From assembly GCA_977020255.1 (NCBI GenBank), contig CDROCS010001071.1, positions 1,984,001 through 2,048,000 on the forward strand: a DNA stretch of 64,000 bases, written 5' to 3'. Source of the DNA: Obrimoposthia wandeli. Lineage: Eukaryota. Of this stretch, positions 1-55,812 are shown piece after piece. The notes under the pieces were generated by a model. That model was not told the origin of the DNA and ran no database searches. It saw only the letters and a program-made list of their open reading frames with translations. Every line of letters begins with the position of its first letter. Positions within the stretch are counted from its first letter, which is position 1. The translations under genes and the position numbers were made by a program.

Positions 1-33
1 GAAGAAATAGTTGAGGAGGATATAATTGAAAAT

Positions 34-3000
34 ATGGCTCAACCAGGAGCTCCAGTAGATAATAATGCAGGAAATAATGTAGGAGACATGAATGCAGAAC
101 AATTGGCACTAGCCTTAAATGCGACGTTGAGACCCAACTTTTCAGGATCATTGCAGATTACAAAGTTTAAAGGAGATGAGGAAAGTATTTGTGACTTCCT
201 CGCAGAATATTCGAGTTGTGCAGATGTTCAAGGATGGAACGATAGAGAAAAATGTATCCGTGTGCAGGCACATTTGACCGGATTGGCACTTGAAGTGTAT
301 AAACATTTAACAGAAGCAGAACGTTTAGATTGGGCAACGTTGGAAAATGCTTTTATTGGAATATTGGTATTGGGAGATTTAGCAAAAGTGAATAAGCGAA
401 TCATGAGAGAACGGAAACAGAAACATGACGAAGGCGTGAATGAATACGCGTATGTTTTGAGAACCTTGGCCGCAAGAACGTACCCAAGAATAATAATGAG
501 AAATCAGGACGGTAACCCTGTAGCTCCAGAAGCACAAGTAGCGGAAAATAACCGGAACCAAAATGAAATGGCAGAAGTTTTGTTAGACATATTTAGAGGA
601 GGACTGAAAAAAGATATTAAAGTGTTATTAGCAGTATCAGACACGAATGATTTTGATAACGCCGTACGAAAGGCGAGAGAGATTGAGAAAAATATAAAAA
701 ATAACGCAGCAATGGCAATTTATGCAATGACCACAGGTGATGACGATAAGACAAAAGTATTCGTGAATAAAACAGAACCGAGTAATTTTCAGAATCGAAA
801 TTATGGACAAAATAAGTTTGAAAAAGGAGATGAATCCAGTAACGGAAACAGAGATAATTTCCGAAATAGGAATCGAGATGATTCGAGAAGTAGAAATAAT
901 AGTGAGTCTTGGAACAGGAATCGAGATGATTCAAGAGGTAGAAATAGTAATGATTCGTGGAATAGAAATAGAGATGATTCCAGGAATAGATTTAGTAGAG
1001 ATAATTCAGGAAATCGCCAACCTTGGAGAGGGGACGATAGGAATTACAACGCAAACAGAGGAGAGCGAAGTGACTCTCGATTTGGAAATAATACAGGAAG
1101 TAGGGACGGAAGATTCAATAATCGAGGAAGTGGTTTTGAATCGAATTTCCGAAGAAATTATTTTAGAGGACGCTATGACAATAGACAGAATAGTCGTCGA
1201 GTACAGTTCGAAGATGAACAAAATAAGATAGATATTCGAGGGAGAATAATGTGTTACACGTGTAAACAAATGGGTCACTATTCGAGAGATTGTACGAGAA
1301 GTAAAGAGTTCGGAACTAACAGATTTGGAAATAATAATTTCGGAAATAATAATTTTGGAAAAAATTATAGAGGATATAATTCACCTCCGCCATGGAATAG
1401 AGGTGGTGGATATACTCCACAGCCATGGAGACCGAATAACCAGTATACAGATAGACAACAGTCACCAGGTAGATACAATAACTATGCAGATAGACAGCAA
1501 GGAGCTGAGAGATACAATAATTACGTAGGACAGCAAGTAGCTGAGAGATATAATAATTCCGGTAGATATAATAATAATAATGTTGACAAGACAAATAGTC
1601 GTGAGAGTTCGCCGAAACCGAAAGGAAATTTTAGTTACGTAAATGATGACAGCGATAGGAATCGCGAGACCGAGCTTCGACGCGAAATTGATTTTGAAGA
1701 TAGTGATAGTAAATTTGAACGAATGTTAGGAATAATTAAAGATTCACCACATACAAAGATGGCGAATTCATCTACGTTGTCGAAACAAGAAAAAAGTCTA
1801 CACTCGAGAGAAGAGATAAATGATTTAATGAACCGAATACTAGAAGCGTATGAGACACCAATAGAGAAAACGTGTAACGCACAACCTATGACTGATCACA
1901 TAGAAGCAGCAAGAAATGCTACAAGTATGGAAAATTTAAAAAAGATAATTAGTGAAGCTAAGGAGACGTTGAATCAACCGTTAGATGAAACGAGTGAAGC
2001 TCCAGAAGTTTTGGCCAAATTGCAAACAATTAAAGTGCACAGATTGGAAGAAGTGCGAGCAGAATTGGTTAAACATAGTCATGATAACTTGGGTTACAAA
2101 GAAGTACCACGAGGATTATTGAAAGGATATGGTCGTTACGTACAGAGATCAAACCAAAATGGAACGATGAAAATTTCGCTTCGATTAATTTCCGGACAGA
2201 TTATACATGAAAAACTTAACGTGTATCAAACAATGAAAACTATTCGAAAAATGTTGGCCGAGAAACTTGAAATTGATGGAATGAACATGTTGTTCCATTA
2301 TAAAGGAAGATCACTAGATGACGAAGACGTACCAGTCGAGTGCGGATATCCAATAGGAAACGAATTAGAGGAAAAAATTGATGTCATTACTGTAGAACGT
2401 CAAGAGTTAGTAGATAATGAAGGATTAACGGAGATATTAAACTCCGCGTTAGAAATGATTAAAACGCCTATAGAAATTTTAGACAGTTCAAGCGAAAGCG
2501 GAGATAATGATGTAGCTGAAGCTTGGAACAAGACATCCACACCAGAACCGTACGTAGCTGAATTACAAGACGTGGAACTAGAAAATGAGTTGACGACTCC
2601 GTTGGTCGAAGTACCACCAGAACCAGAGATAATTCAAACCAGACAAGATGAAGTAACGGATATAGCTAACCAAGTGAGACAAAACGAAAACGTAACCCAA
2701 CTAGTAGGAGAAGACGAAATCTCCGAAATTATAGATTTAGATTCACCAATTTGGCATGCTGCATACAGAGATAGACAAGCAGAGCAGATGATGCGACAAA
2801 ACGAAGAGATTGGCCATGAAGAAGGACCAAGTCAAGAGATACAGTATAATGGTGAACCGTATGATCCAGGAGAGAATCAAACTGAGTATCAGTATTTTCG
2901 AAGAGGACCTGGAAGACCTAGAAAGGACGGAAGTATATTACGAAATGTTCTAACTGCACCACAAACTGATGAGGAGAGACATCTAAGCATTGGACAGTTA

Positions 3001-6000
3001 GCAGCGTCATTAGAGCAGTATAGTACGGAGCGAAATGAAGATATCAGAGGTGATATGAATTCGGAAGCTCCAAGTAGTAAAGATATACTTACGGGAATTC
3101 TCAGGCAAGTGAAGCCGAAGTTGTTCAAAATGTACAAAGATGAAACAACCGATATAACAGACAATTTGACTAAAGCAGTTAGATCACAAATGTCTGCAGT
3201 AAAGAGAATGACTGCGAATCATGTATACCATGCATCAATAGATAGATTTTATGACGGTGAAGTTTTAGCAAGATTATGTGGAAACCAGACTACAAATAAA
3301 AAGTTAATTACAGCAATCACATATCTATGTTTCCAATTGACGGAACGAACGAGCCAATCTCACGAAGTCAAACAAGGAATAAATGAAGCGATGTATTTGA
3401 TCGAGAATGTATTGCAGAGACGAATTGACGAAAACGGAGGTTGGGCAAAATTAAGTGACTACGCTAAAACCATTGTGGAAATGAACGAAGACGATGACAA
3501 ACAATGTCATGAGAACCGGCAGAGAGAAAATAAACAATACCGTCCGAAAGAAAGAAACAATCAACCAAATATGTCCACAACAATGATGATGATGATGTTA
3601 GTAATGTTCATGGGAATGCAACAGGCATCAGGGTTGATAGCATACGACTGTAGCATACCAAAAATGGGACAAAAGTATTCACTGCTTGACAGCGAAAACT
3701 GTCCAGAATCACAACCGTCAAAATTAGAAGTTAAAGGTGTTGAAAACTACTTTGTGTATCAGGATGTTGATAAGATACAAGTAGAATTGAAAGAATGTTC
3801 AGTCCATTCAAGTTATCACGAATTCTATTGTGGCCATAGAGGTTTTATGTCGGAAATCACATCTACCACACCGTACAAAGTACATAAGGTTTTTCCGAGA
3901 GATTGCGAAGACGCATTTCGAACAGGAACAATAGACAAGAATTACAAACCTGATGTAAAAGTTGGGGTGAGACGATACGAAACAGTCACGAGAGTAGGAC
4001 AACGATGGCCTGATGGATCTTGTGACGGAGGAACAAAAAACGTGCGTGGTACCAAAGTAACAGAGTTAGTAATGGACGTAACTTACAAAATCGAATTAAA
4101 AACATGGACCGCCAATTTTGATAAAAAGACACAACGAATGATGAAGTATCCGGAATGTAAAATGACAGATGCATCTTGTTTTACAGGTGAATCCACAATT
4201 GTGTATCACGTGAATCCGAAACAATGCTCTTTAGTATTTTTGAAAGAAATTAGTTTTAATAAAATAAAAGGGTTCCTGTATAATAAAGATGGAGAAGGGT
4301 TCCTGTATAATAAAGTTGGAGAAGGATTTCATAATGAAACAAGACCAATTCCTATGACGGCGACACCTACACTGTTAATGGCAACGTCAACAGAAGAAGG
4401 ATTGATATTTATTAAAAAGAGAAATAAAGCGCGATGCGGAATGACTGTTAGTACTACAAACTATCCTGGAATAGTTTTGTCCAGAGAATTAATAGCATTG
4501 GCAGAAACCAAGCTAAAACCTAGAGATATGCAGCTACACACGTATTTTAATAATAAAATTGATTTTTATTATCATAAAGGATTGATGCAAATGGAACAGT
4601 TATATCGGATGATGATCGAGAGAGATTGCCAGCTAAACAAAGAGATCGTAAGAACAAAGTTAGCATTAGCTATTACGAATCCAGACATGGTAGCACCATT
4701 ATTACCCCTGGATGAAGGAGTATTTGCTAAAACCATGGAAGAAGTATTGTATACTTACAAGTGTAATAAAGTAGAAGTACAGTTGAGAAAAACAGATCGA
4801 TGTACGAGTGAATTGGCCGTAACGCATAATTTAAAAGAACTCTTTGTTGAACCAATCACGAGAATGATACTTCCAAAAGACACTCCAACTAAAGAAATCA
4901 GCTGCTCTAATATAATGGCACCTGAATATCAGATGACGAATGATCTATGGATAACGCTACCTGACCGAAAGCCAACGAAAACTCCAGAGATGATAAAAAT
5001 GACAAATCTTAAAGGAAAAATGAAATTCGAAGCGGTAGAAAATATGGAGAACGCAGGTTTGTACAATGAAAAAGACTTAAAAGCGGCCTGGAACGAAATA
5101 ATGTTTCCAGTAAAAAGGGCCAGAGTACTTACGGAGATGGTACATCGAGCATTACCGCCAGGAGCTAGATATGCGAATTTTGATATGTTATTATCGCCAA
5201 GCCATTTCAAGGAAGCAGCACATCAGACACTTAGAAAGATGTGGGGGAAATTCCTTGTTTTAGGACAATTATTTTCGGGTATCATAGGTATTTATGTTAT
5301 AATTAAATTTGTGCAGGTAATTATAGCCCATATGTTGTCTACGTATAGTTTATACAGGATAACCGGAATCACCTGGCAACTTATAATTGGATGTTTTCCA
5401 TTTTTAGCAAAATATCTAATGCACCATCATCACGAGAACGAGTTGCGAGCCCTCAAGAAGGAGCAACATCAAACGAGAACCATGATGCGAAACCCAAGAA
5501 ACTATCGAGACGACAACAACGACGATAATGATAGTCCAGGAGAATATGCAAAGATACCAGGAAAACCAAAGATTCCGTTACCAGACAAGGAAGAAGTGGC
5601 GCTAAACCTATATCCAATGAAGGAACTAAAGGAAGAGAAGGAAAAGTTCAAGAGAGGCATTTTAATGATAAGATGGCCTAAAGTGAACTACAGTAAGATT
5701 CCAAAAGCAGAGGAAAAAGACAAAAAAGATAATTCAAGAAGAATTCTAAAGTCTAGGATATCCAATGAGAATCCAAATGCTCCACCACAAGTAGCAGTAA
5801 CACTGAACGGAAGAGAATATCTTGCCGAAGTCGATACTGGATCTGCAGTATCAGTACTGAGTAAAGAAATCTTGTCATCAAAAGAATTAAGAGAAGTATG
5901 TCCTAGAAAACAGACATTTGTTAACGTAAACGGTACAGATGTAGTGTCAGAAGGAACACTGAAATGTTCATTAAATATCGATGGAAGAGCATTGCAGTTA

Positions 6001-9000
6001 AATGCTAGAATATTCACAGATTGCGGTAGTCCAGTCATGATTGGGATGGACGTAATACGGATGTTTGAAGGAATAATTATATTACCAAACAACAAGAGTT
6101 TTAAGAACGACAGTTCAGTGAGAGAGATAAAAATGTTGAGAGGACCTATAGTCGAAAAGGAAAAATACACTATGTTCCGTATGGGAAATCCGTACCAAGA
6201 TAAGAAACAGGAAGCGCTAGTAAAGTCGATACTTCACTACAAAGATGTAAACTCCGGACCACAAGCTATGACGAGGAGGAAAATAACATATGTGAATCTG
6301 TCAGAAAAAGATCCCTTGAGAATCGAGAAAAATAGACGAAAATCATTAGAACTGTACTATTCAAAAGAAATGGCACGTAAAATGGCAAGATCAGGTTTAC
6401 AAATGTTAAACGCGACAAGTAGTTATGGTCATGAGGAAGTAGTACGATGCGTATGGTGTAGAGTAAAGTTTAGAAAGTGGGAGAAGAATGAAAACCCAAT
6501 GAAACGTCATAAAAGAGATGCACCAAATTGCCCATTTCTTTTGAAACTGAAAACTTCAAAAATACCAGAAATCCAAATGGGAAAAGCACCCGATTTCGAT
6601 TACAGTGACGAGATTCCAAAAGGAGAATCAACTCTAATAGTAGGCAGAGTAATAACAAATAGCCGAATTGAAGACATATTCGAAGTTATGCGAGAAGTGA
6701 ACGAATGTGCCGAACAATATCGAGAAGTAACTTTCGAAGATCCAAGACTTAAAAGATTGGCAAAAAAGGGACTTTTTGCTATAAAAAAGGATGGTAAAGA
6801 CGTAATTAAATGCCACAAGTGTAAAAAAGAACGAATTATCGACAGATATACTCTTGAGTTACCTAAGAAAACTTTACATCACGAATTTTGTGAATTTTGT
6901 ATTTTTAAAAACAAAATAAAGCAAAAAGAACAGAAAACAGAATGTATAATCGAATACCAAATCACACGGAAAGAGATTTTGGCTCAACAAGACACACCGG
7001 TAGTGTCATTCGTGAGAAGACTATATCCAAAAGAAGCAGAAAGAATCAGAGATTTGGTAGAATTAAAAATAAAAACTACACGAAACGGATACGGATCGAT
7101 TTTTGAATTACTAAAAGATAAAGATGATAGTACAATTGAAACAAAAGAGAAAGAGTACATAAACGAACTAGAATACGTACTGGAAGATCCGGAATGTGCA
7201 GTTTGCATGGTCAACAAAATAGAAGTTGCCTTTTTACCATGCGGACATGTAAGAACATGTCGGAGATGTGCGAAGGAAATGGTATCATGTCCGATTTGTA
7301 GAAGGATAATATATCGACAAGTGAGAAATATTAGATTTCACTATCCAAACAAAGGAAGTGGACCGACAGAGTTTAATAATTCGATAAATACAATATACCA
7401 CATGGGAAATATAAATGGAGCACAGCGACCAGCAGCTATCATTAGAGTAAATAATTTAAGAGTAAAAGCCTTAATTGATACAGGTGCGGTAGCTTCGATA
7501 GTAAGTGAAGATTGTTTGACGGAGGAACAGAAACGAACAATGGCAGAACCAGATGAATTCTTGGTATCGGTCAATGGAGACCCTGTAAAAGTGACGGGAA
7601 TATTACCATGTACATTTATAATTGGATGTAATACGATCACTATACCAGTTAGAATCATGAAAAAATGTCCTGAACCTACAATTTTAGGAATGGATGTACT
7701 ATCACAACTCAAAGGGATAAGTATTGATTTACAAGATCCAAGATTGAAGGATAGTACATCAAACAGACAAATAAACCAAATTGATGTAATTATAGAAAAT
7801 CCTATAAAAATCGGTAAAAGATCACAATTTCTCATTCAAGGTCACACATTGTCAGAAGATAAAGGACCAGTTGTGTTCGAACCATCACGGGATTTCATAG
7901 AGAAATACGAATTACCAATTGTGATTACAGCATGTCTGATTGAAAACCACAAAATACCAGTCAGACTGATGAATACAACCAACAATGACATCCTGTTATA
8001 CAGAGGAATGAGGTTGGGAAAGATAGCACAGATGGAGAATCCCACTGTGTGTGCTATGAAACTCGATAAAGACACGAATGATTACGAAGAAATAGTAATC
8101 CACTCAGAAAGACTGACAACTAGAGAAAAGAAACCATTACTTGATCTAATACATAAATTTCCGAAAGTAATTGCAAAAAATCCGTATGACATAGGAGAAA
8201 CACCTGTAATAAAACACACAATACCGCTGACGGAAGACAAAGTAGTCAGAAGAAGACCATATCGAGTACCATTACAGTTACAAGATGAAGTAAAACGTCT
8301 GATTGAAGATATGTCTAAAACAGGAGTAATTAGACCGAGTTTTTCACCATTCTCAGCACCTGTAGTGTTAGTAAAAAAGAAGGATGGAAAAATGAGATTC
8401 TGTATAGACTTCAGAGAACTGAACAAGATCACAAGAAAAGATGTGTATCCATTACCTAGAATCGAAGAGATGCTCGATAAATTAGGTAATTCAGATTATT
8501 TTACGACATTGGATTTGCAGAGTGGATACTGGCAAATCGAGATAGAGGAAGAGAACAAACACAAAACAGCCTTTTCCTGCGGAGATGGACTATACGAATG
8601 CGAAAAAATGCCATTCGGACTGACAGGAGCTCCAGCAACATTTCAGCGTTGCATGAATTTTGTACTCGCATCGTGTGCAAACACGATGGTTTATATCGAT
8701 GACATAATAATATTTTCTAAAACGTTCGAAGAACATTTAAAAAATCTTGAAGTTGTATTTAAAAGACTGGAAAACGCTAAATTAAAAGTTAAACCTACAA
8801 AATGCGATTGGGCTAAAGAGCGAGTAACATTTTTAGGACATATAGTATCGAAAGAATGCATCCGACCTGATACAGCAAAGATCGAGAATGTAAAAGCGCA
8901 TTTAGCGCCAAAGACTGTTAAGGAAATACAGAGTTTTTTAGGTCTTGCGAACTATTATAGACGATTTGTTGTACATTTTTCGGATATAGCAACACCATTG

Positions 9001-10152: not shown

Positions 10153-10720
10153 TACGGAGTACCTAGAAAGTTATTAACGGATCAAGGTAAGAACTTCACT
10201 GGAGAAGTAATCAAAGCAGTATCGAAGATATTCGGAATCATGAAGTTACAAACTTCACCATATCACCCACAAACCGATGGTCTAGTAGAAAGGTTTAATA
10301 AAACTTTATGTATGATGGTACAATCCTATTGCTCAGACAAGCAAGAGGATTGGGATAAATATTAGAACAATATGCCAATGATCTGGAGTGGACCGAACCA
10401 ACATCTCAGTATCTAGAAACTGAACAATACATTGTCGTTATGAAAGAAAGATTGCAAGATGCTTGGACTAAAGCAGGATTGAAACTGAAATTCAATCAAG
10501 AAGGTTACAAGGAACAATATGACAAAAAGGCAAAACCACATGAATTTAGAGTCGGAGACCAAGTGATGATATTTTATCCAGTCATCGAACCAGGTCTATC
10601 GTTTAAACTTCATAGACCATACAAAGGACCATACAAGGTGATACAGACAACCTCAACAAATTTGAAAGTAATCAACGAGGAGAACCGGAACAAAGAACCA
10701 ATGATTGTACATGCAAATCG
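9780..10720 (+). pseudogene. Integrase, disrupted (TGA at 10150-10152; deletion/frameshift at ~10362)
   Basis: HHCC finger and DILGP are followed by a TGA, then in frame YGVPRKLLTDQGKNF...SPYHPQTDGLVERFNKTL. The usual 'PYVLFAYRT...TPF' segment is missing, and the frame resumes shifted with a GPY/F motif (KLHRPYKGPYKV). Confidence 0.9.
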
Positions 10721-12041
10721 ATGTAAATTAGTACCAAATAAAGATAACACGTCACGATACGAGTTAAGATCACAGAAATTGAAGCCGAATACCAATACCA
10801 TTAAACTTACACGAATGGTAAGTGATCGAAACTACATAAATATGATGACAAGTGGTAGCGAGAGAAAACCAGTGAGAATTGGTATGCTCAGAATGAAGCA
10901 CCAAGAGGAAAAAGAAGTAATCCGACACATCGCACCACAAGAGATATTGGAAGAAGACGAAGAGATAATAGTTGTTTTCGAAAGAACACAACCAACAGAT
11001 GTGGCGAAAGAAGTCATTGTGAAAGATGCACTGACAAACGAATTTCTATGCGAACTTAGAGTGTCATACTACGACGGAAATACATTAGTCGCAGAACTAC
11101 ATCAAAACTCCAATGTGTTTACGACTGAGAAAGTGATCATCGAAATCACATTGACACCAAACATAGTTGCATGGCAGAACTATGACAGTACTGAAGCAGG
11201 ACTAGCATGTCAGGAAGAAAAAGAACCGGCCGGTGGTCACATACTGCATGGTACACCAAAAAGACTCAAACAAGAATACCACGATGTAATAATGGTATTA
11301 CGTAATTCACATGGGAAAAGAGACATAATGAGAGTTCATTTAATCGACGCTGACACTGAAAAGATAATCTGTCAGATGGACACCAAATACTTTGACGGAA
11401 AGACCATTGTATGTAATATACCGGAATCTCACCAATTAAACACAGATCAAACGGAAGTATCTGTAAGGTTGAGCGTAATAGAAGGATTTCATTCGCCAAC
11501 CCAACCGGAAGTAACAAACAATGAAATCATTAAAGCAACGGCAGAGTTACGCATTGACAGCGGATACCGGAAGTGGGAAGCTAAAAATAAACCACAAAGA
11601 ATCAATATGATCCGAGAACAAGTGACAACCTCAATTCAACCAAAATATCATGCTGAAATAGTATCAACCGCACCAAGTGTGATTACATCGATAAACGACG
11701 AAATTATAATTTTACTAAAAAATCGATGGCCGTCATCAACCGAGATACGAGTCAATTTAATTAATTATGCGAAAACACCCATATCTAAGCTGAATGTCAC
11801 CTATTTCGATGGATTGTCCATCATGGGTAAATTGGAAACAATTGTCATGTGCTACGGAGCACAGTTCCAAGTTGAGATACTTAAAGATAGTGTAATACCG
11901 TATCCAATTCACAGATACGCAGGACCAGTCAATCCAATTATTCTAACCCCTTCATTAATTTCAGTTCAGACAGACATACCAGAATTCCCTTCGAACGAGT
12001 CTAGTCAAGACAGCGAACCTGAAAGTAGCGATCCAGAATAA
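10440..12041 (+). CDS. Integrase C-terminus (GPY/F) plus three ~65-aa repeats of an unknown domain; frameshifted continuation of the polyprotein
   Basis: Frame open from 10362; FRVGDQV...KGPYKV; repeats share Y(Y/F)DGx(T/S)(L/I). Confidence 0.8.
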   Translation: MKERLQDAWTKAGLKLKFNQEGYKEQYDKKAKPHEFRVGDQVMIFYPVIEPGLSFKLHRPYKGPYKVIQTTSTNLKVINEENRNKEPMIVHANRCKLVPNKDNTSRYELRSQKLKPNTNTIKLTRMVSDRNYINMMTSGSERKPVRIGMLRMKHQEEKEVIRHIAPQEILEEDEEIIVVFERTQPTDVAKEVIVKDALTNEFLCELRVSYYDGNTLVAELHQNSNVFTTEKVIIEITLTPNIVAWQNYDSTEAGLACQEEKEPAGGHILHGTPKRLKQEYHDVIMVLRNSHGKRDIMRVHLIDADTEKIICQMDTKYFDGKTIVCNIPESHQLNTDQTEVSVRLSVIEGFHSPTQPEVTNNEIIKATAELRIDSGYRKWEAKNKPQRINMIREQVTTSIQPKYHAEIVSTAPSVITSINDEIIILLKNRWPSSTEIRVNLINYAKTPISKLNVTYFDGLSIMGKLETIVMCYGAQFQVEILKDSVIPYPIHRYAGPVNPIILTPSLISVQTDIPEFPSNESSQDSEPESSDPE

Positions 12042-13310
12042 AAGAATCCGAAGATAACATAATAGAGCGATTCGAAAAAACCATGGAGGTTGAATTCGCT
12101 AAAGAGAGCAGAAAAAGACGAAACATAGAATTCGTGAAACAGAATATACAAGAAAGACGAATCAAATCTGCAGAAGAGACCGAGTCGGAAGAGGAATCAA
12201 CAAAGGAACAGACATCAGAGACAAAGATGAATATATCTCCAGCAATACGAATGCTGAGAGGAAAGAAACTGGCGAAACTATCCAACATTGACGAACAAAT
12301 AAAGAAGAGATTAGAAAGACTAAAACTTTAAGAGTCAGAATTAATGCCACCAATGAGTGAGATCATTCCAGGTAAGTTATACCTCGGAAATGTGGAAGAT
12401 GCAACAGACGAAAAGAAACTGTTGGAACAAGGGATAACATACGTGATCAACGTTACAATGAATCACAAATCTTAATATCAGACGATCAGAGCCATGACAT
12501 TAAGAGTAAAAGACTCAATGGAGGCTAATCTTCTCGAATGGTTCGTAAAAACAAACGAGATACTTCACAGAGAACTCCAAAACCAAGGAAAAGTGTTGGT
12601 ACATTGTCAGAAAGGAATCTCCCGATCAGCAACCCTAGTATTAGCGTATCTAATAAAGACTAGACGAATGCAGGTACTAGAAGCGCTGAAATACCTGCAG
12701 GAAAGAAGAAGTATTGCAAACCCAAACCTTAATTTTTTGGGACAATTGTCAAATTACCAACTCCTGTTGCAAGAACAGAGACGGATGGACGACATCCCTG
12801 AGGATCCAAAGGAAAAGAATTTCCTCCAAGCACTATCGTTGACCGGATTATTCTTAGCCGGAGTCGATAAAATCACTCAGATAATGCCGAAAGTATTTTT
12901 ATGTTATCCAGGAGATATAGATACCGCTGGATTAAAGTTCCACAGTATCAACCGAGTAATTAATATTGTCGAAGTCGGAAATGAGATAATCAGTCTGTGT
13001 CAAAATACTGAAGATGACACAACTCGATACATACATGCTTCCAATCGAGAGATAAATGATGCACAACAACATCTGATGAAATTGACTCAAACCATTCAAG
13101 CCGAAGTCACAGAAGGAAACGGCGTTCTGATATATCAGAAAAAGGTACAATGTTAGCTCCTACCATAGGTGTATCCTTGTTGGTAGAGTACCATGATCAT
13201 ACACCAGAAGAAGCGATGGTTTATATCAAACAGAATAGACCAGACACGGAATTCAAACCGTTACTCGTTCGAGAAATAGAGAAGTACTCCGAAAAGAGGA
13301 AGCAACAACG
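12029..13310 (+). pseudogene. Charged linker plus tandem dual-specificity phosphatase domains (first with intact HCX5R, second degenerate)
   Basis: One frame from 12029 to 13156 with stops at 12329 and 12473: MSEIIPGKLYLGN..DA...GITYVINVT, VHCQKGISRSATLVLAYL, RSIANPNLNFLGQL. The second domain (ITQIMPKVFL...EEAMVYIKQNRP) crosses a frameshift at ~13140. Confidence 0.85.
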
Positions 13311-13794
13311 AGAAACAAATGAAGCTACAACAACAGTACCCAGCTATCAATACCAAAGATTGCTAGCACTAGGCTTGTTAAATTGTTTGATGCCGATAAC
13401 AGGAGCACAAGAGATAGGCTCCAACCACGGAAATAGTTCATGGTTCAAAGAAATCAACAACTACATCATACAGTACCATACACCGGCACTGATGATGCTA
13501 TTAGTGTTGTTAGGACTAATTGATGTGTGGGTCATCCGAAAATGTCTCCGATCTATGAGAACCGACAGTAAAAGATTTCAGTTTGTAAAGATGAAGAGAC
13601 CAACTGGACCAACGAACCAAGTACTTGTGTATCTAGACGAAAGGATTGAGGATAACATAGTGAATGAAGCGATATTCTATCCACAAAACAGAATACTGAA
13701 TCAATTCCGAATAGTTACGAAGCTGATCGACAGCGCACACTTGACCGAATATCAGCAACATTCGCCGGATGCAGGCGAAGAAAACGAATTGTAA
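13150..13794 (+). CDS. Polyprotein fragment: end of pseudo-phosphatase, signal peptide plus TM cassette
   Basis: LLALGLLNCLMPITGA|QE followed by TM ALMMLLVLLGLIDVWVI. Confidence 0.65.
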   Translation: MLAPTIGVSLLVEYHDHTPEEAMVYIKQNRPDTEFKPLLVREIEKYSEKRKQQRETNEATTTVPSYQYQRLLALGLLNCLMPITGAQEIGSNHGNSSWFKEINNYIIQYHTPALMMLLVLLGLIDVWVIRKCLRSMRTDSKRFQFVKMKRPTGPTNQVLVYLDERIEDNIVNEAIFYPQNRILNQFRIVTKLIDSAHLTEYQQHSPDAGEENEL

Positions 13795-13883
13795 AGGAAA
13801 TACAAAAAGATGCGGATACAAAAGGTCCGACGTATATATTCGACGGCGATGTCATCAAAACACGTGAGTATGGAAGTAAGAGA

Positions 13884-14267
13884 GTGATAATTGAAACGAT
13901 GGAAGGACATAAAACATGCTTGTCCGCCAAAAATGGATTCGGAAAGTTGACGATACAAGGTAAACAGGTACAGTTGATTATCGGAAAAACTGGAATCGAA
14001 GATATGTCAAAACAACGACAGACAACAAAACGACCTAACCAGAAACATATATTTCTCAAACGAATGATAATCAAAACCCTTTGCAAAAGGACAATCAAGG
14101 CCCTGTGCACCGTTGCACAAGGATTAATCTACGGAGTAGTAATTGGATTGGTACTACAAGCCATTCCAACCAGTAAAGCTGAATTGATGACACTATCCGA
14201 ATATAATTTACATTTGAGAAATCTAGACAACACCCTAGAAATAATCAAGACGTCCCACAGTATGTGA
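13884..14267 (+). CDS. Polyprotein fragment ending in a signal-peptide-like segment
   Basis: Frame open from ~13790; LIYGVVIGLVLQAIPTSKA|EL; overlaps the next ORF by a -1 shift. Confidence 0.55.
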   Translation: MIIETMEGHKTCLSAKNGFGKLTIQGKQVQLIIGKTGIEDMSKQRQTTKRPNQKHIFLKRMIIKTLCKRTIKALCTVAQGLIYGVVIGLVLQAIPTSKAELMTLSEYNLHLRNLDNTLEIIKTSHSM

Positions 14268-16060
14268 AAGGATGTCCACGACGAATGTGTATAGTCCCAG
14301 CGACCGAAATGAAAACACTTAATGGACATTATGGAGTTAGTGTTGTCACATGTGAAGATTACACATTTGGACAAACTAAAATAGTACTTCTCAGTGACAT
14401 GTCCAACCAAAGTGTACATAAATTTAAAATATTAACCATCAAGAGTAAAGGGATACCAGCAATACGTTATGGTATTCTAGAATTGGTTAATGCAATACTG
14501 GCATTGATCATAGGATTTATAATATTAATATTACTCATATTGTTTTGTTGTACAAAGATAGAGTTGAGATCAAAAAAGAAACGTCATGATCTCGCAAGAC
14601 AAACAGGTCAAATGAATTTACAAAAATTCAACACAAGTATACCAAGACCAGCATTCCTAAATGAACCAGCACCAGAGTACCAGCCAACAATATATGAACA
14701 TATCGAGGAAAGACCGTACTATATGAGTAACTTGAGTTGTTCCAGAGAAGTTCCTGAGATTCGGAACCGAACGATATTAGGAATCATGCTGATCATGCAA
14801 ATCACCACGACCGAGGCTGGTTATGAGATCATGATCAGTAAATGGAGACAAGATACGATACGTGCGTTATACATAGAAATCCCTCTATTAAAAACAAATC
14901 ACGTAGTAGACATTCACTTACAAACGTCAGCAACCGACAATGTCGATCAGAAATTGTATGTCATCCGACAGGTCAGAATAAAGATTGACCAACATACACC
15001 TTATTACCGACTGATATTATTCTATCATGAAAGGGTGTTATACCTACGGATAACGATATCAAAGAGGAAACGGATTATTCAAAGTATCCGAACAAAGTCA
15101 TTAATATTGCCTAGAGATGAGCGAATATGGAAAGTTGTCGACAGGATTATGATCACAGGTAGACGACGTAAAACCGTATGGAATTCCGTTAGAATATTCT
15201 TCAGATTGTTAGAAACTGACCAGGCAACAGTGGCGTGTCTCAATCCAGATGGTGGAATCAGATTCGAAATTCAAAACCAAATGTTAATACCACATTTTGA
15301 TGCAGAATGTCTATGTAACCGAATTCCCAGCAATGCTAGAGAGACCACTACCATAATCATGGTAATAACAGGTGAAATATTCTACATAACTCTAAGATAC
15401 CAGACACGTCGATTTCGTGGACTCGGTATAAGTATTAAACCCAGGAAAATTATTTCCGGAAAACCAATCAAGGTCATAAAAAAGGAAAAGGTGAAAGGAA
15501 GTAAACGTCATTCCAAAAAGCCAATCATAATCAAAAAGAAGGCAAAGGTAAACGGAAGTAAACGCCATTCCGAGAAGCCAAAAGTAGTCATAACAAAGGC
15601 AGAAGTGAAAGGAAAAGAGCTCAATCCCAGAAACCAAAGTACAAGTATTAAGAGGACAAGAGTGAAGGGAACGATCCCACTAGATCCCAAACATCATTTC
15701 CAATCTAAATTAATAATACCTGTTCCACCGGAAACAAAATATCCAAATCCGCGAGTTATTAGAAAATCGGACATAATACATGGAAACCGATCAACACCAA
15801 TGGAAATGTCATTCAAACCGACAAACAACAAAATGAAGTATGATTATCAATCATCAGACAGCGGAATAACAGCGGTCAATGCTCTAATTGGAATGGCAGT
15901 AGTGTCAACAGCAGTGGTCCTATTGACAGTCGTGTGCGTGAAAGGCAGTCAAGTATGTCCAAGAATACGACGAAAATGCGAAGGACTGCGATGCTGTAAC
16001 ACACCCACAATGGAGGAAGTGGAATTGCGACCCTTACCTCCGCCTCCCATCAAGACATGA
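14264..16060 (+). CDS. Polyprotein C-terminal part: TM, signal peptide, ectodomain with Lys-rich duplication, TM, Cys/Pro-rich tail
   Basis: 598-aa ORF with TM ILALIIGFIILILLILFCC, signal TILGIMLIMQITTTEA|GY and TM ALIGMAVVSTAVVLLTVVCV. A homologous relic lies at 56500-56815. Confidence 0.75.
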   Translation: MKGCPRRMCIVPATEMKTLNGHYGVSVVTCEDYTFGQTKIVLLSDMSNQSVHKFKILTIKSKGIPAIRYGILELVNAILALIIGFIILILLILFCCTKIELRSKKKRHDLARQTGQMNLQKFNTSIPRPAFLNEPAPEYQPTIYEHIEERPYYMSNLSCSREVPEIRNRTILGIMLIMQITTTEAGYEIMISKWRQDTIRALYIEIPLLKTNHVVDIHLQTSATDNVDQKLYVIRQVRIKIDQHTPYYRLILFYHERVLYLRITISKRKRIIQSIRTKSLILPRDERIWKVVDRIMITGRRRKTVWNSVRIFFRLLETDQATVACLNPDGGIRFEIQNQMLIPHFDAECLCNRIPSNARETTTIIMVITGEIFYITLRYQTRRFRGLGISIKPRKIISGKPIKVIKKEKVKGSKRHSKKPIIIKKKAKVNGSKRHSEKPKVVITKAEVKGKELNPRNQSTSIKRTRVKGTIPLDPKHHFQSKLIIPVPPETKYPNPRVIRKSDIIHGNRSTPMEMSFKPTNNKMKYDYQSSDSGITAVNALIGMAVVSTAVVLLTVVCVKGSQVCPRIRRKCEGLRCCNTPTMEEVELRPLPPPPIKT

Positions 16061-16184
16061 TAAGTCAGAGGAGGTTGTAGATAAATTAGTGTGTGAAATA
16101 TGTAGAAATATCTAGAAGCGATTGTACAAATAAGTAGAAATATGTAAAACTCATGTAGAAATTAATTGTCATCATGTATTTAGA

Positions 16185-16484
16185 ATGTCCGAGGAATGCC
16201 CAATATGTTTGGAAGATTTAACCGAACGAATAACAAGACCCGAAACCTGCAACCATTTACATCACAAGGAATGTTTATCAAAATGGATCAGAACTTATGG
16301 AAAATTCGTACATCCAACATACCCTCGTTGCCCTGTATGCAGAAGACAATTCACAAAGTTCATCATGATAGAACCCAACCAAGAGGATGTAGATGTACAG
16401 GTGGTATTCTGTTGGAAGAATTTCAGAGAGTGTTGGTGTTACTACTGTCTGTCAGAACGACAAAATCCGACCACTTTTGTGTAA
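16185..16484 (+). CDS. RING-H2 protein 1 (putative E3 ligase), element accessory gene
   Basis: CPIC...CNHLHHKEC..W...CPVCR plus C-terminal CW....CWCYYC. Confidence 0.85.
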   Translation: MSEECPICLEDLTERITRPETCNHLHHKECLSKWIRTYGKFVHPTYPRCPVCRRQFTKFIMIEPNQEDVDVQVVFCWKNFRECWCYYCLSERQNPTTFV

Positions 16485-16544
16485 ACATCACACAACCACC
16501 AGTCCTCAATCGAGCCCAAATTCAACACCAACCCTCTCACAGTA

Positions 16545-16850
16545 ATGTCTGGAGAATGTTCCATCTGCTACGAGAACATCGTGGACCTCTCCACCAAACC
16601 CAACAACTGCGACCACCAGTTCCACGTCGAATGCCTCGAGACGTGGATCCCAATAGCCAACAACAACAATCCCCTCGACTACCCAAACTGCCCGATGTGC
16701 AGAGCAACCTTCTCGGTGCACTATGTCTACAACCGGGACAGCCTCCAAGCAGTGGTACCCATTGTACACTGCTGGAAAAACATCTGCGACTGCTGGTGTT
16801 CGTTCTGCGTGGAGGAGCGACGCACAGTCCAGCCCAACACCCAGCAGTAA
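16545..16850 (+). CDS. RING-H2 protein 2 (paralog of RING 1)
   Basis: CSIC...CDHQFHVEC..W...CPMCR plus CW....CWCSFC; GC-richer than surroundings. Confidence 0.87.
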   Translation: MSGECSICYENIVDLSTKPNNCDHQFHVECLETWIPIANNNNPLDYPNCPMCRATFSVHYVYNRDSLQAVVPIVHCWKNICDCWCSFCVEERRTVQPNTQQ

Positions 16851-17202
16851 CCGAAGGTAACTTTCTGACTTAAAACGTGACATCATGAACTACCCCTGTG
16901 TATCGCATACCGCGATAAATTAGCTACCATAATTGTAATCATAATTGTATAATCTTGTGAAACTGTAAAATGACCATTACCATTTTTATGTATGTTGTTT
17001 ATTTGAAATTGTAATTATTATACTGAAACAAAAGACAATTTTTATGCTTAGTATGAATGTGAAAAACATGCCTAAAATCAAGACAGAACTCGGTAGGATT
17101 AAAATACTAAGGTTTATGATATTAAAACTAAAATATTAAATTCGTAAATTAATATTAAAACCAAGTTGTACCCCGAATTAAAAAGAAGTAATTATTGAGC
17201 AG

Positions 17203-17715
17203 ATGATTTGCTCAATCTGCCTCGAGACCATCCGGCAAGCGTCGGCAAAACCTGCTGGGTGCCAGCACAAGTTTCACGAAGCTTGCCTATACAAGGGGGC
17301 CAGATCCCTAGCCCTATCCGCAGGGCACATCACTTGCCCAATGTGCCGCACCCCCTTCGCCGAATGGGCACTCAAGTGCCGAGGACGCCTGAAGGGCAAT
17401 CGCTCTCTGGCAACCTGCATTGGCGGACAGCACTGCAGATGCTTCGTGTGCCTGGCGCGCCGTCGAGACGTGCAAATTGGCATCCGCGAGCGATGGCGAT
17501 CTAGCCGCGACTGCCGCTCATGGCAGCAGGGCAGACGGTTTTGGATCGCAAACAATCGGCTGTACGGCTTTGACTTAATTGTCGAAAGCCCCCATCTGAG
17601 TCCTGCCCAGCAGTCGGCCTTATACACAGGGGACACTCCGTCCTTTCCGGACCTGCCCCTGGAGCATATAATGCTCTTCCTAGACGATCGGAACATGCCG
17701 GACATGGATGACTAA
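17203..17715 (+). CDS. RING-H2 protein 3 with C-terminal extension
   Basis: CSIC...CQHKFHEAC...CPMCR plus C......CRCFVC; GC-rich. Confidence 0.82.
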   Translation: MICSICLETIRQASAKPAGCQHKFHEACLYKGARSLALSAGHITCPMCRTPFAEWALKCRGRLKGNRSLATCIGGQHCRCFVCLARRRDVQIGIRERWRSSRDCRSWQQGRRFWIANNRLYGFDLIVESPHLSPAQQSALYTGDTPSFPDLPLEHIMLFLDDRNMPDMDD

Positions 17716-18270
17716 ACTGATTCATTCCCTTTTTCTGTGCTACATTTTTAGTTATGTATATAATATAATTGAACATTTGCGACCGTGTCCGAATTTTTCA
17801 TAAAAAAAAATAATACCGAGTTTTGACAAAACTTTTGGGCCTGTTTGATGAGTTTGAATGATTGAAATTAAGTGGGGATATTTCTAAAATCTGAGGCTAA
17901 TAAGTTTAGTAAAATAAAATCGATACGTTCCGGGGACGTAACTTTTTCAGAACCCCCGAGATATGTTAGGTTTAGGTTTTGGAAACAAATTAAATAATTA
18001 ATTGATTTTATAGTAAAATGAAAATCCTTGAAAGCAAGGTTAGAATTAAATAAATTTTATATTAAAATTAAAATTGTTGAGTTTAGATAGTAAATAAATA
18101 TTAGAGGACCACGAAGGTCGTGTGTAATGCGTAAGTATATAAGATATTAAGTTTAAAAACAAAGGGCCCCAAAAAACAGAGTTGCCAAGAAGAAAAAAGA
18201 ATTACAAAGAAAATTGGAAAGACAAGTGCAATTAGCAGAAAATTGGAAAATATCATTAGAAGAAAAATCA

Positions 18271-18478
18271 AGCCACGTCAACTCAGCCACGTCACAACAG
18301 CTGTTTTCCTGAGGTAATTAATTACTTGAACTTGGCTCAAATTAGAGAATCCTCGTTGAAACGAGAACCACAGGAAGAAGTGAGTGACAAGCCACGTCAC
18401 CCAACAATCCACGAGAAGAAATCCATTGCCAACAGCTGGACTCAGTACACACGCCTAAATAGAAAATAGACTATATAA
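18271..18478 (+). promoter_or_regulatory. LTR promoter: three AGCCACGTCA bZIP sites and a TATA box (TATATAA, 18472-18478)
   Basis: Exact 10-mer at 18271, 18285 and 18390, upstream of TATA. Candidate leader splice donor AAG|GTAAGA at 18563. Confidence 0.55.
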
Positions 18479-19000
18479 GTCTACGTATAGAAGAAAATAT
18501 ACCCCCAAAAAGAAATCAATACTGCACCAGGAGACAAGACAGAAGACGAAATCGACACGAAGGTAAGATGAGTAGGAACATCTCCACCAAATTTAAGTTG
18601 AAACGCGCAGATAATCAGTGTGACAATACAACACAAGCCGATTTCGCGATCAACACAGCGGAACGATCGTGCCGATAGCAGACAGCTCTGGGAAGTCCGA
18701 ATCTCAATTCAAACGCCAGATCTCGCACCAGAACAACAAACGGAAGTAGTATCTAATTCTGCACCGGACGCAGTGGGAACAACATCACTACAGTACCTAC
18801 AAATAACAAGAGCAATTCAAGCAGAGCTACCGGATCTCAACGAAGGATCGTTCGTGATTATCGCAGTCAATTCGCGTGCGGGATTTGATAACTGGAGCAA
18901 ACTAAAGGTATAAATACCCACAAATTTGAAGGAAAAGTTAGCAAGATTAATTTCGTTGAAGTTCAATTTTGTTAAAGTTATAAAGATTAAGTTCGCTGAA

Positions 19001-20140
19001 GTTGATTCGTTTAAGTAAAATTGAATTAAATACCGTTGATTCGTTTGAGTAAAATTGAATTAAATACCATTGATTTGTTTTAAGTAAAATTGAATTAAAT
19101 AACCGTTGATTCGTTTAAGTAAAATTGAAATAAATACCCGTTGATTTGTTTAAGTAAAATTGAATTAAATACCATTGATTTGTTTAAGTGAAATTGAATT
19201 AAATACCGTTGAATTGTTTGAGTAAAATTGAATTAAATACCATTGATTTGTTTTAAGTAAAATTGAATTAAATAACCGTTGATTCGTTTAAGTAAAATTG
19301 AATTAAATACCATTGATTTGTTTAAGTGAAATTGAATTGAATACCGTTGAATTGTTTAAAGTGAAATTGAATTAAATACCGTTGATTCGTTTAAGTAAAA
19401 TTGAATTAAATACCATTGATTTGTTTTAAGTAAAATTGAATTAAATAACCGTTGATTCGTTTAAGTAAAATTGAATTAAATACCATTGATTTGTTTTAAG
19501 TAAAATTGAATTAAATAACCGTTGATTCGTTTAAGTAAAATTGAAATAAATACCCGTTGATTTGTTTAAGTAAAATTGAATTAAATACCATTGATTTGTT
19601 TAAGTGAAATTGAATTAAATACCGTTGAATTGTTTGAGTAAAATTGAATTAAATACCATTGATTTGTTTTAAGTAAAATTGAATTAAATAACCGTTGATT
19701 CGTTTAAGTAAAATTGAATTAAATACCATTGATTTGTTTTAAGTAAAATTGAATTAAATAACCGTTGATTCGTTTAAGTAAAATTGAAATAAATACCCGT
19801 TGATTTGTTTAAGTAAAATTGAATTAAATACCATTGATTTGTTTAAGTGAAATTGAATTAAATACCGTTGAATTGTTTGAGTAAAATTGAATTAAATACC
19901 ATTGATTTGTTTAAGTGAAATTGAATTGAATACCGTTGGATTGTTTAAAGTGAAATTGAATTAAATACCGTTGATTCGTTTGTGTAAAATTGAATTAAAT
20001 ACCATTGATTTGTTTAAGTAAAATTGAATTAAATACCGTTGATTCGTTTGAGTAAAATTGAATTAAATACCATTGATTTGTTTAAGTAAAATTGAATAAA
20101 TACCCGTTGATTCGTTTAAGTAAAATTTAATTAAATACCC
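19001..20140. repeat. ~34-bp tandem satellite inside LTR, ~33 copies, alternating variants
   Basis: Unit GTAAAATTGAATTAAATACC(G/A)TTGATT(C/T)GTTTAA. The array is bracketed by a ~50-bp direct repeat (18913-18965 and 20135-20185). Confidence 0.95.
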
Positions 20141-21950
20141 GCAAATTTGAAGGAAAATTATAAAGATTAATTACGTTGACGTTCGATTCGTTTAAGTAAA
20201 ATTGAATTAAATATTGGAGAAATAAGATCTCCAACTCATTTCATAGATTAGAGCAACCAGCTTCCCAGAAGACTTCTTACTTAACGTTGTTACATTTGGA
20301 GTACAGACTCTAGTAACCATCTAACCCTAACGTTAAAATCGATACGTGGTTCATCCCCACTTGAGTAGAGACTTTCAGAAGTCTTAGGAATTTTACTACA
20401 ACTTTTTAGAAAATACGTACGTAAACGTATTGTTTTGTTTAGTCTAGTGTGTTAACAATAAACGATTTCCTACATTAGAAAGCATTGTTCTAAAACCTTC
20501 AGATTAAGAGACATTGAAAAACAAACACCTTCAGATAAGCATTGAGACAGGCAACTATAACATTAGGTAGGCCACGACCAACTTTAAGACCTGCTTCTAT
20601 AAGAACTCACGTTGGGGCCCTCCACATTCAAGAGGATCTATAAGTTTCATATAGAAACCCCAACATTTTCTCAGTGGCCTGTAATGGTCATAGCTTTTGC
20701 TAAATAGGCAAACCTTATCGGTAGGATTTTAGAATTTCATGAGTTATATTATCTATATATACCATTTTATCTGTCAGCTACACGTTATGAAATAATCCGA
20801 TTTTTTCATTCTTGAATTACATATTAGTGAGTTAACCTTGTTATTGGTCATTTGCCTCATATTCGATATCTGATTTGTGTATTATATATTACTAAGTCAA
20901 TATACTGGTTGGTTGAATAGCTACACCAAAAGTGGAACACAAATTACGCTGGTTTATTGTAAATTCATATATAGTACTATTTTAGAAAAAATCAATATAT
21001 GCATAGCGGATTCTAGTAATTTTGAAGTACTGCATACAATAACTTCCAAAAATGGGGAATAACCAGAATAAGCCGGCAACACAGGTTATATACTTTTTTA
21101 AGAACTCACGCACCAGAGGCTTCTAATAAATGTAACAACTCTGAACCTAAAAGTAGAAAATAATTAGATTTTCTGGATTTAAAGACTTATTTAAATGTTA
21201 CATAATATATTCTGTTGTATGTTGATAATTCTAATGTTATATGTGTTAATAATACTTTTTATCATACATCAAAGCTATCTAATATTTATATTAAAATATA
21301 AATGTAATTTCATCAGAAAATTACATACATAATCAATTTCAATGAACAAAGTGTCAAGTCAGTTTTTTAATACAATTTATTTATTAGTGATTTTAAATCA
21401 TAACAATATAATTTTATTCTAATTATAGGCAATCTTGTTATTACATGGAATTCTTTCTGTAATGACATTAAAAAACTATTTACATATCTAAGACACTAAC
21501 ATTGAAATGAATCGTTAATTATTATATAATTTACAAACTATTTGTGATTTCTGATTTTGGAAAAACATTGTGAATCATGTTGTCTTTTTATAATTTTGAC
21601 TCTTCAATTTTTGTTGCTTAATCGTACAATTTGTCAAGTAATTTTTAGACTATGAAACTAGGATTTTAATTGTTAAAAATATTTTAAACCCTTACTCGAA
21701 TTTAAAAATAATTTATTGATTTGTTTCAAAAAATCACATATTTATATACATTTAAAAAAGCTTAAATACAAAATAAATAAGTTGGAAATTAAATAATTAT
21801 TCATAGAATAATATTAAACAAATTAATTTAGTATTGTATTTTAATGAATCAATTAAATTGCTAAAAATTTACGAACAATTTTAAAAATATGTTTATAAAT
21901 AATCGCCATTATATATAATTTTCGCCAGCTGATAGCTTTCCTACCCATTC

Positions 21951-54882: not shown

Positions 54883-55812
54883 TTATTTGGTGGCCACAAT
54901 TTGGCGGATCTTTTCGAGTCCGAGTGAAGCCACATTCCATTTTTCTTCTCGTGTGATGTCAACGGCACCTAGTTGACTCAGTTGCTCATCTAAAACGAGT
55001 CGTGGTACGTACCACACGATGCTGGTGACCTTGGTTTGGTGTACGGCAGCGGCGGCCTTGCGCAGACAGTCGGACGATAGGATCTCAAGGTCACCCACAA
55101 AGTCGGAGAAAATGATCGTCATGCCATGCCAGGAGTTGTAGGTGACTTGAACCACGAACGAGCAATCTAGCTCTTTGTCACTGCTACTCTTCCTGGACAC
55201 ACTGACTAGTCAACTGAGACCCTTGGAATGTCTCTTGATAATGAAGAAGAGTTCGTTCACGGCAAGTTCCTCGTGTTGACTCTGGATCGGCTGCAGCAGC
55301 ACATTGAGCACCTCCGTCTCACCGAATACCTCAAACATGGTGACTCCCTCGCATGAGCTGCTGAGGTTCTCGAAGCCGAGCCCGACATAGAGCTTTTCGA
55401 GGCCGCAGATGGAGCTCTGGAAGACGAGCTTGATGAAACTGATGTTGTTGGACACCGTCATCTCATACATGTGGTGCATGAGCTTCTTGCCAAGTCCACG
55501 TCCACGCAGAATTGGGTCCACAAAGAAGTCGTCAATATAGTAGCCATAGCCGTGTCGGCTTGAGTACTCTTCCACGTACAGCAAGTAGCCCACAGCACGA
55601 CTTGTGCCAGTGTCGTTGTCACTGTCTTGTTCCATCAGCAGCAGACATTCAAATGCTTTGGCTCTAAACGCTTCCATCATGTCGACCTCGTTCATCAAGA
55701 AGTACTGGGTCATGCCCTGATGATACTTGACGAGATTGCTCGTGAAATTGAAAATTACACCGATGTCTTCCTCTTTCGCTGTAATAATTTGGTAACTGCT
55801 AGACAGGATCAT
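54883..55812 (-). CDS. Intronless SSAT/diamine-acetyltransferase-like tandem GNAT protein: 200 aa, or 309 aa via in-frame TGA at 55210-55212
   Basis: GNAT motif A YIDDFFVDPILRGRGLGKKLM. The downstream ORF is in the same frame and carries second-domain motifs (YNSWHG, GAVDITREEKW). GC-richer than flanks. Confidence 0.82.

Follow-up and report, generated by a model that had tools for sequence, protein, structure and literature searches.

Domain organization of the element

The window analysed here is a stretch of 64,000 nucleotides from Obrimoposthia wandeli (assembly GCA_977020255.1, contig CDROCS010001071.1, positions 1,984,001 to 2,048,000). It begins with one copy of a giant Ty3/Gypsy long terminal repeat (LTR) element that encodes a fusion glycoprotein (Env) together with a series of host-like domains (Table 1). 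The element stretch is strand-skewed and mostly ~38% GC, versus ~27% GC in the flank. Its reading frame is already open at the window start and continues for 3,383 codons (1-10152). Shorter frames lead on to 16060, and three small open reading frames (ORFs) extend to 17715. A first-pass annotation had assigned to a single element an Env, a Bcl-2-like domain, a complete inhibitor of apoptosis protein (IAP), a ubiquitin-like domain (UBL), tandem phosphatases, three RING-H2 candidates and several membrane proteins. Each of these was found, all at 1-20665 on the plus strand.

The pol region has the Ty3/Gypsy order of protease (PR), reverse transcriptase (RT), RNase H and integrase, based on Pfam. 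The integrase of the window copy is broken by a stop codon at 10150-10152 and lacks ~80 bp near 10363 relative to sister copies. No methionine was found upstream of the one at 34 in 107 open codons. The Env call was corroborated by a profile search, in which residues 1194-1841 matched Pfam Monjiviricetes_fusion (PF24664, E 1.9e-90). The UBL is present, if weakly matched: its top PDB match is ISG15 (E 0.003), 23 of the 25 matches listed are of ubiquitin/SUMO/ISG15 type, and relative P0016 has a weak ubiquitin match at the equivalent position.

The Bcl-2-like domain was recovered from an alignment and not from a single sequence. With the single sequence there was no match in whole-ORF Pfam or PDB phmmer searches, and the ESM Atlas results were led by the fungal DUF6532. 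The single-sequence AlphaFold model had a pLDDT of 39.6, and a fold search with it returned generic helical bundles. Among 15 matches in a PF00452 search of the genome none lies at the window locus, and word-based homologue searches found nothing beyond the alignment members. The alignment comprises five segments, namely the window, three relatives identified by phmmer and a fourth by position and motif. All five have a Pfam Bcl-2 match (best 2.5e-5; window 0.03), and among the PDB matches listed for their profile 59 of 60 are Bcl-xL/Bcl-2 (best E 0.001), with the BH2 end as the main driver. The BH2 GGW is retained, and the BH1 NWGR is retained in none of the five segments; host Bcl-2 exons retain the WGR of BH1.

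The IAP module is complete, with Pfam matches to BIR (E 4e-13) and RING (E 6e-11) and a weak one to a second BIR (E 0.018). Its top PDB match, cIAP1 (3t6p), spans the BIR, a weak UBA-region stretch and the RING. Alignment of the BIR to cIAP1 revealed three substituted positions, a Gly, a Glu and a Trp, which we take to be residues of the peptide-binding pocket. The IAP is bracketed by two aspartic proteases, and a tree of protease domains gave no resolved grouping. The segment at 7768..8040, a candidate dUTPase-like domain by its position, had no Pfam match at E ≤ 1.

Behind the integrase are three repeats that are mutually 22-23% identical. Their model is all beta (pLDDT 75.5) and resembles the BCAP DBB domain (Z 5.3, rmsd 2.6 over 68) and Met IPT (Z 5.2), with phage proteins scoring higher (Z 6.7 and 6.4). 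In the ESM Atlas, 10 of the 10 best family matches belong to the TIG clan, at a low recognition score; there was no Pfam TIG match, no PDB sequence match and no Foldseek match at E ≤ 0.001. The resemblance to IPT/TIG domains is thus suggestive, not decisive.

The tandem phosphatases are two DSPc domains, as annotated, and only the first of them (DSP1) looks catalytic. In DSP1 the Asp is present and the nearest PDB structures are DUSP10/MKP5, DUSP4 and DUSP1 (E 1.5e-24); the window copy has a stop near 12475. The second domain (DSP2), without the Cys and Arg, is frameshifted in the window copy. Hydropathy places transmembrane (TM) segments near 13465, 14495 and 15884 of the polyprotein tail, with Tyr- and Pro-rich cytoplasmic tails, and the tail probably comprises three signal-ectodomain-TM membrane proteins.

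All three RING-H2 ORFs have complete C3H2C3 spacing and a C-terminal Cys cluster. Their ATG-started lengths recur in other copies: 99 aa for ORF 1 (14/17), 100-104 aa for ORF 2 (14/15) and 161-192 aa for ORF 3 (13/17). The GC content at third codon positions (GC3) of ORFs 2 and 3 exceeds the 0.27-0.40 measured elsewhere in the element. Most host exons sampled lie at 0.52-0.67, and a single one lies at 0.29. An AG lies within 5 nt upstream of the ATG in 17 of 18 copies of ORF 1, 16 of 16 of ORF 2 and 16 of 18 of ORF 3, compared with a YAG at 0-2 nt before 47 of 440 element ATGs as background. This pattern suggests spliced or trans-spliced messages; no informative splice joints were found among the matches listed from runs of contigs of unspecified type. 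We rejected a nef-like placement of the RING ORFs inside the LTR, as the LTR starts only at 17964. A comparison of RING 2 with phages gave no match.

Table 1. Features of the element in the window and in its sister copies
Feature	Position	Strand	Basis or remark
Ty3/Gypsy LTR element copy, 5′-truncated and decayed	1-20665	+	window
Gag capsid region, first polyprotein Met at 34	34..705	+	Retrotrans_gag E 0.11; homologous to N-termini of P0007, P0016, P0015
CCHC zinc knuckle	1252..1296	+	Pfam zf-CCHC E 7e-5
Ubiquitin-like domain, without C-terminal diglycine	2164..2400	+	Pfam ubiquitin E 0.012 (weak)
Divergent Bcl-2-like domain, directly ahead of Env signal	3064..3462	+	profile-level matches
Internal signal sequence and chuvirus/gB-type fusion glycoprotein (Env), membrane anchor near 5257-5346	3571..5523	+	
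Aspartic protease 1 (DTG)	5791..6054	+	Pfam
IAP module: BIR, degenerate BIR, UBA-like stretch, C3HC4 RING	6268..7335	+	Pfam and PDB match
Aspartic protease 2 (DTG)	7441..7716	+	27/91 residues identical to protease 1
Conserved segment at the place of the dUTPase-like domain of Burro	7768..8040	+	position, selection
Reverse transcriptase (YIDD) and RNase H	8371..9423	+	Pfam, motif
Integrase, broken in window copy	9751..10730	+	Pfam
Three ~80-aa beta-sandwich repeats, probably IPT/TIG-like	10914..11897	+	model and fold comparison
Dual-specificity phosphatase DSP1, MKP-like, intact HCxxGxSRS loop	12346..12790	+	Pfam DSPc E 4.6e-30
Second DSP domain (DSP2) without catalytic Cys/Arg, probable pseudophosphatase	12860..13300	+	DSPc E 4e-6 in sister copy
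Polyprotein tail, three predicted signal, ectodomain and TM units, stop 16060	13340..16060	+	sequence, hydropathy, frame continuity in copies
RING-H2 ORF 1, 99 aa, Cys-rich C-terminus	16185..16484	+	AG right before ATG
RING-H2 ORF 2, 101 aa, GC3 0.78	16545..16850	+	AG right before ATG
RING-H2 ORF 3, 170 aa, variable tail, GC3 0.69	17203..17715	+	AG right before ATG
3′ LTR (TGTT...AACA)	17964..20665	+	bounds from two-LTR copies on C127, C344
LTRs, primer-binding site and target-site duplication in sister copies	C127, C344 (all three); C760, C5551 (primer-binding site)		

Copies, frame continuity and selection

The window copy has ~eight stops, frameshifts or deletions between 10150 and 14270. 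It retains only the 3′ LTR, which contains a 34-nt tandem array (19001-20139), and no 5′ LTR or primer site was found in 20 kb upstream. Two sister copies, on contigs C127 and C344, have both LTRs (96-97% identical within each pair) and 4-bp target duplications on their flanks. The C127 copy measures ~24.4 kb between its LTR ends and aligns colinearly, at 93-97% identity, with positions 1-18174 of the window; the window element therefore belongs to a family and is not a chimera. A primer site occurs 8 nt past the 5′ LTR in all four 5′ LTRs examined and matches the 3′ end of host tRNA-Met(CAT). Tandem tRNA-Met(CAT) arrays with a ~284-bp period, a likely primer source, are present on C2252 and C2837. 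At 17915-17963 there is no plain polypurine tract ahead of the 3′ LTR, and the copies on C127 and C344 have the same sequence there.

The family is very abundant. Searches of the genome with DSP1 and RING 1 gave 150 of 150 scored matches at 97-100% and 150 of 150 at 93-100%, respectively, from 14,160 and 21,903 first-look candidates, which are not copy numbers. One sample was covered by four runs, and in every run 5-6% of the assembled contigs fell on the family. Two element-bearing contigs have mitochondrial inserts that are 89-90% identical to a mitogenome using table 9 (the flatworm/echinoderm code), consistent with a flatworm host. The assembly itself is mixed: besides many oxidases of bacterial type, it contains a mitochondrial contig using table 5, numerous mitochondrial inserts of the table-9 type and 18S types that are only ~89% identical.

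For frame and selection analyses we sampled the first 20 plus-strand matches listed in the DSP search (window excluded), together with 10 kb of flank at either end. Each of the 14 junctions that run from integrase to the last TM lies in one open frame in 8 of 16 to 20 of 20 informative copies. In the 5′ half, where the window itself is open, each of 12 junctions does so in 3 to 9 of 13 copies. As the junctions are continuous across copies, the pieces belong to a single frame; this points to one polyprotein of ~5,350 residues, from the Met at 34 to the stop at 16060.

Codon variants were classed as shared (at least three copies) or singleton, with no consensus built. With DSP1 left out as biased, dN/dS ranged from 0 to 0.35 for shared variants across all 21 segments and from 0.23 to 0.75 for singletons. 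The site count is a simple one that takes no account of transition bias, and singleton dN/dS is also <1 (a downward bias), so that only the shared-singleton contrast is meaningful. That contrast was significant (Fisher p<0.05) in 15 of the 21 segments, including Env (0.13 shared vs 0.35 singleton), the IAP (0.18 vs 0.51), the Bcl-2-like domain (0.05 vs 0.28), the TIG-like repeats (0.07 vs 0.45), the UBL, DSP2 and RING 3. Shared values were 0.01 for RT-RNase H, 0.06 for the UBL, 0.02 for DSP2, and 0.24, 0.15 and 0.13 for RINGs 1-3, and segment 7768..8040 has 8 synonymous and 0 non-synonymous shared variants. DSP1 is uninformative because the copies were chosen by their DSP1 match. The variants shared among copies thus indicate purifying selection in nearly every module.

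Relatives of the polyprotein

Searching the Bcl-2-plus-Env stretch against 1.84 billion representatives retrieved Env polyproteins at 28-42% identity. In the RT tree, the window sequence groups with all six relatives that have an Env polyprotein (SH-aLRT 98), and 15 metagenomic RTs lie outside this clade. The latter come from a metagenome scan that gave 23 RT loci, none with an Env match, and 8 of the 23 were left out of the tree as short or broken; no named Burro reference is among the sequences. In a quick tree of glycoproteins, 14 polyprotein Envs group together (99), and 22 other glycoproteins, nearly all stand-alone and ~650 aa long, fall outside this clade.

Relative P0016 preserves the order CCHC-UBL-Bcl-2-Env, and the UBL-Bcl-2-Env order is kept in a relative at 31% identity. 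At least two DTG protease domains occur in 7 of the 11 relatives scanned, with zinc-finger and ankyrin modules between protease domains (ankyrin in P0151). In four relatives the polyprotein extends past the integrase and has signal-like hydrophobic segments in this extension. The counts of DTG domains are seven in P0151, four in P0004 and three each in P0001 and P0003, some after the integrase. BIR or DSPc was found in none of the 17 relatives scanned, most of which are fragments. P0006 (HBK71150.1), an Env-carrying retroelement polyprotein, is named a Flavobacteriaceae hypothetical protein in NCBI and is probably from a eukaryotic contig in a bacterial bin.

Neighbouring features in the window

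An intronless SSAT/diamine-acetyltransferase-like GNAT gene (PDB E 6e-9) is located at 54886-55824 on the minus strand, inside a block of ~3.3 kb. Four nearly identical copies of this block exist, and each has a 195-bp piece of the element's polyprotein end upstream. The idea that the gene (55.2-55.8 kb) is cargo carried by a sister element was rejected, as the gene has 16 matches only and the 195-bp fragment is absent beside paralogues. A hAT/SPIN-type transposase remnant with a Spin-doc zinc finger and a BED finger (39500-41095, plus strand) adjoins an LTR-end-like fragment (38478-38698, minus strand) that is 74% identical to the element LTR; tandem arrays occupy 41528-42443. LTR-like pieces at window 57353-57423 and at L007:4890-6110 have a 3′ end like that of the element LTR and probably represent a diverged sister family.

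Proposed life style and alternatives

We consider it likely that the window holds a Burro-like GAG-ENV-POL Ty3/Gypsy element, a gB/chuvirus-type errantivirus, with a polyprotein that would be cut by signal peptidase and by its own proteases and with cargo that would dampen host stress/immune signalling. Its life style would resemble that of a complex retrovirus built on a single polyprotein. Full-length RNA would be translated at the endoplasmic reticulum, where signal peptidase would cut at the internal signals, splitting Gag-UBL-Bcl-2-like from Env and leaving Pol behind the Env tail. The two proteases may then free the IAP, Pol, TIG-like and phosphatase modules, and the polyprotein tail would yield three membrane proteins. 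Expression of the RING-H2 genes would depend on sub-genomic RNAs made by splicing or trans-splicing. The cargo most likely acts in the producing cell, through dephosphorylation of mitogen-activated protein kinases (MAPK) and ubiquitination of host factors, and not by a textbook caspase block. Env most likely lets the element spread from cell to cell and from soma to germline, as in Drosophila gypsy. This organization raises the question of how Pol would be packaged once signal cleavage parts it from Gag.

Several observations weigh against parts of this reading. None of the 20 copies is fully open over the 3′ half and none over the 5′ half, so present activity of the element cannot be claimed. 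Env had no match by phmmer against PDB sequences, and its presumed gB-type fold is assigned through its sequence family. The AG acceptor pattern was spotted post hoc, and the criterion applied to the copies was looser than that for the background. The RING-H2 ORFs are also paralogous to one another (23-36 identical residues of 82-93). The selection contrast missed p<0.05 in RING 1, RING 2, Gag, protease 2, segment 800-1020 and the last tail segment. An anti-apoptotic function of the Bcl-2-like and IAP modules is doubtful in detail, because the BH1 motif and the BIR peptide pocket are both altered; the apoptosis block at two levels proposed in the first-pass annotation is therefore unproven.

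These altered motifs also bear on the alternative of a horizontally infectious invertebrate complex retrovirus with cargo that directly blocks apoptosis, by a Bcl-2 groove and IAP-caspase binding, in the manner of large DNA viruses; this is the reading of the first-pass annotation. In its favour, Env is conserved over its full length, and the Bcl-2-like and BIR-RING modules are present and apparently under selection. The support for an infectious lineage is indirect, namely the purifying selection on Env, and a weak 0.08 share in a marine metagenome run carries no evidential weight. However, BH1 is retained in none of the five aligned segments, the BIR pocket differs from that of cIAP1 and no exogenous form was found. 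The Env and RT clades are also broadly congruent and deep, which fits the ancient vertical picture drawn in PMC13524379, and we regard this alternative as unlikely. Somewhat less probable again is an intracellular retrotransposon that acquired host domains passively, with a vestigial Env and cargo that is hitch-hiking or only structural in particle assembly. Every examined copy is broken, the second BIR, the second DSP and BH1 are degenerate, and singleton dN/dS is below 1 too under a method biased downward. Yet shared dN/dS is far under the singleton values in Env, IAP, Bcl-2-like and TIG-like modules, the UBL-Bcl-2-Env order is preserved at 31% identity, and catalytic and zinc-binding residues are retained. 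A chance chimera or assembly artefact of nested insertions might be suspected from the fragmented, 5′-truncated window copy, but it is refuted by the C127 colinearity, the abundant near-identical DSP and RING matches and the frame continuity in copies, and we give it almost no weight.

Beyond the signalling-dampening errantivirus proposed here, we tentatively raise a wider possibility, to which we give less than even chances. Burro-like elements may be a widespread clade of enveloped invertebrate retroviruses with a flavivirus-like modular polyprotein. In such a scheme internal signal peptides would split Gag from Pol, signalling domains captured from the host would be flanked by duplicated proteases (up to seven) that allow their excision, and small spliced accessory genes would precede the 3′ LTR. 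An MKP phosphatase, an IAP and RING-H2 ligases would then suppress host stress/immune signalling during cell-to-cell spread. If this is true, each cargo module would mark a host anti-retroelement pathway, much as the accessory genes of vertebrate retroviruses led to the host restriction factors that they counter. A selected MAPK phosphatase, an IAP and three E3-like genes would point to unknown invertebrate defences against mobile elements, beyond piRNAs, and the family makes up a large part of the genome.

Comparison with known systems

Captured Bcl-2 folds, IAPs, dual-specificity phosphatases and small accessory ORFs are familiar from the Bcl-2-fold immunomodulators of poxviruses, the IAPs and phosphatase of baculoviruses and the accessory genes of HIV. 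The likeness of the window cargo to these is a functional analogy, as the best PDB matches of the window modules are cellular (Bcl-xL, cIAP1, DUSP10).

The closest described elements are Burros, which exceed 30 kb and have polyproteins of 4,873 and 5,140 aa (Arkhipova and Yushenova, 2019; PMC6431247). The Burro section of that paper lists Gag, Ubi2/SUMO-like, BCL2, an in-frame Env matching mononegaviral fusion proteins and BIR, as well as a RING zinc-finger motif, ankyrin, MATH and a dUTPase-like domain between PR and RT; the searches of that study used HHpred. It proposes an integrated provirus that meddles with apoptosis and ubiquitination. The Burro link made in the first-pass annotation agrees with this description. 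Burro 1-4/GYPSM1 come from Schmidtea mediterranea and a further Burro-like element from Dugesia tigrina, with dugesiid planarians as the hosts. Like them, the window element is a giant Gypsy with a ~5,000-aa ORF1, Gag-CCHC, Ubi/SUMO-like and then BCL2-like domains before Env (here weak, at profile level), Env in frame ahead of the protease, a BIR, accessory ORFs and very high copy number (PMC6431247). Unlike Burro, it is ~24 kb long, not >30 kb, has one CCHC, not two to three, and carries its BIR within a BIR-BIR-UBA-RING module bracketed by two proteases. MATH, ankyrin and Smc, motifs that vary among Burros, had no Pfam match at E ≤ 0.1 in the window element. We call the element Burro-like only, a class set by domain anatomy. 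BURRO1 RNA increases in differentiated cells upon PIWI loss, according to PMC8532177.

Elements of the GAG-ENV-POL order with a gB-type Env have been catalogued in Platyhelminthes, Nematoda and Bryozoa and argued to be ancient (Chary and Hayashi, 2026; PMC13524379). The window element shares with these HSV/gB-type errantiviruses the gene order and the Env type between gag and pol. Judged by eye, the Env rows of Smed_errantivirus_1-6 and the window Env have common cysteine positions and motifs. No tRNA type is given there for the Smed errantiviruses, and the window family has a tRNA-Met primer-binding site. Mosquito BEL/Pao elements with a chuvirus glycoprotein (Dezordi 2020, cited in PMC13524379) have the same Env family on a BEL/Pao backbone, and stand-alone ~650-aa glycoproteins fall outside the polyprotein-Env clade.

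The cargo is undiscussed in the main text of PMC13524379, in which the words Burro, phosphatase, apoptosis, RING and ubiquitin each occur 0 times, and the available parts of PMC11410931 and PMC13326412 contain nothing on it. Literature searches listed no work describing elements of this type with phosphatases or RING-H2 proteins as cargo; the Grohme 2018 extended data, Repbase and figures may already annotate some modules. The earlier supposition that the combination was undescribed is overstated. Env, Ubi/SUMO-like, BCL2, BIR and the provirus idea are already in PMC6431247, whereas the text of its Burro section names no phosphatase, no IAP running from BIR to RING, no TIG-like repeat, no membrane protein and no RING-H2 ORF (its Fig. 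2A and the Grohme 2018 supplements lie outside this comparison). In combination, the results indicate an element of a kind already known, to which the phosphatase pair, the protease-bracketed IAP, the probable TIG-like repeats and the RING-H2 ORFs with an acceptor-like AG are additions relative to the texts compared here.

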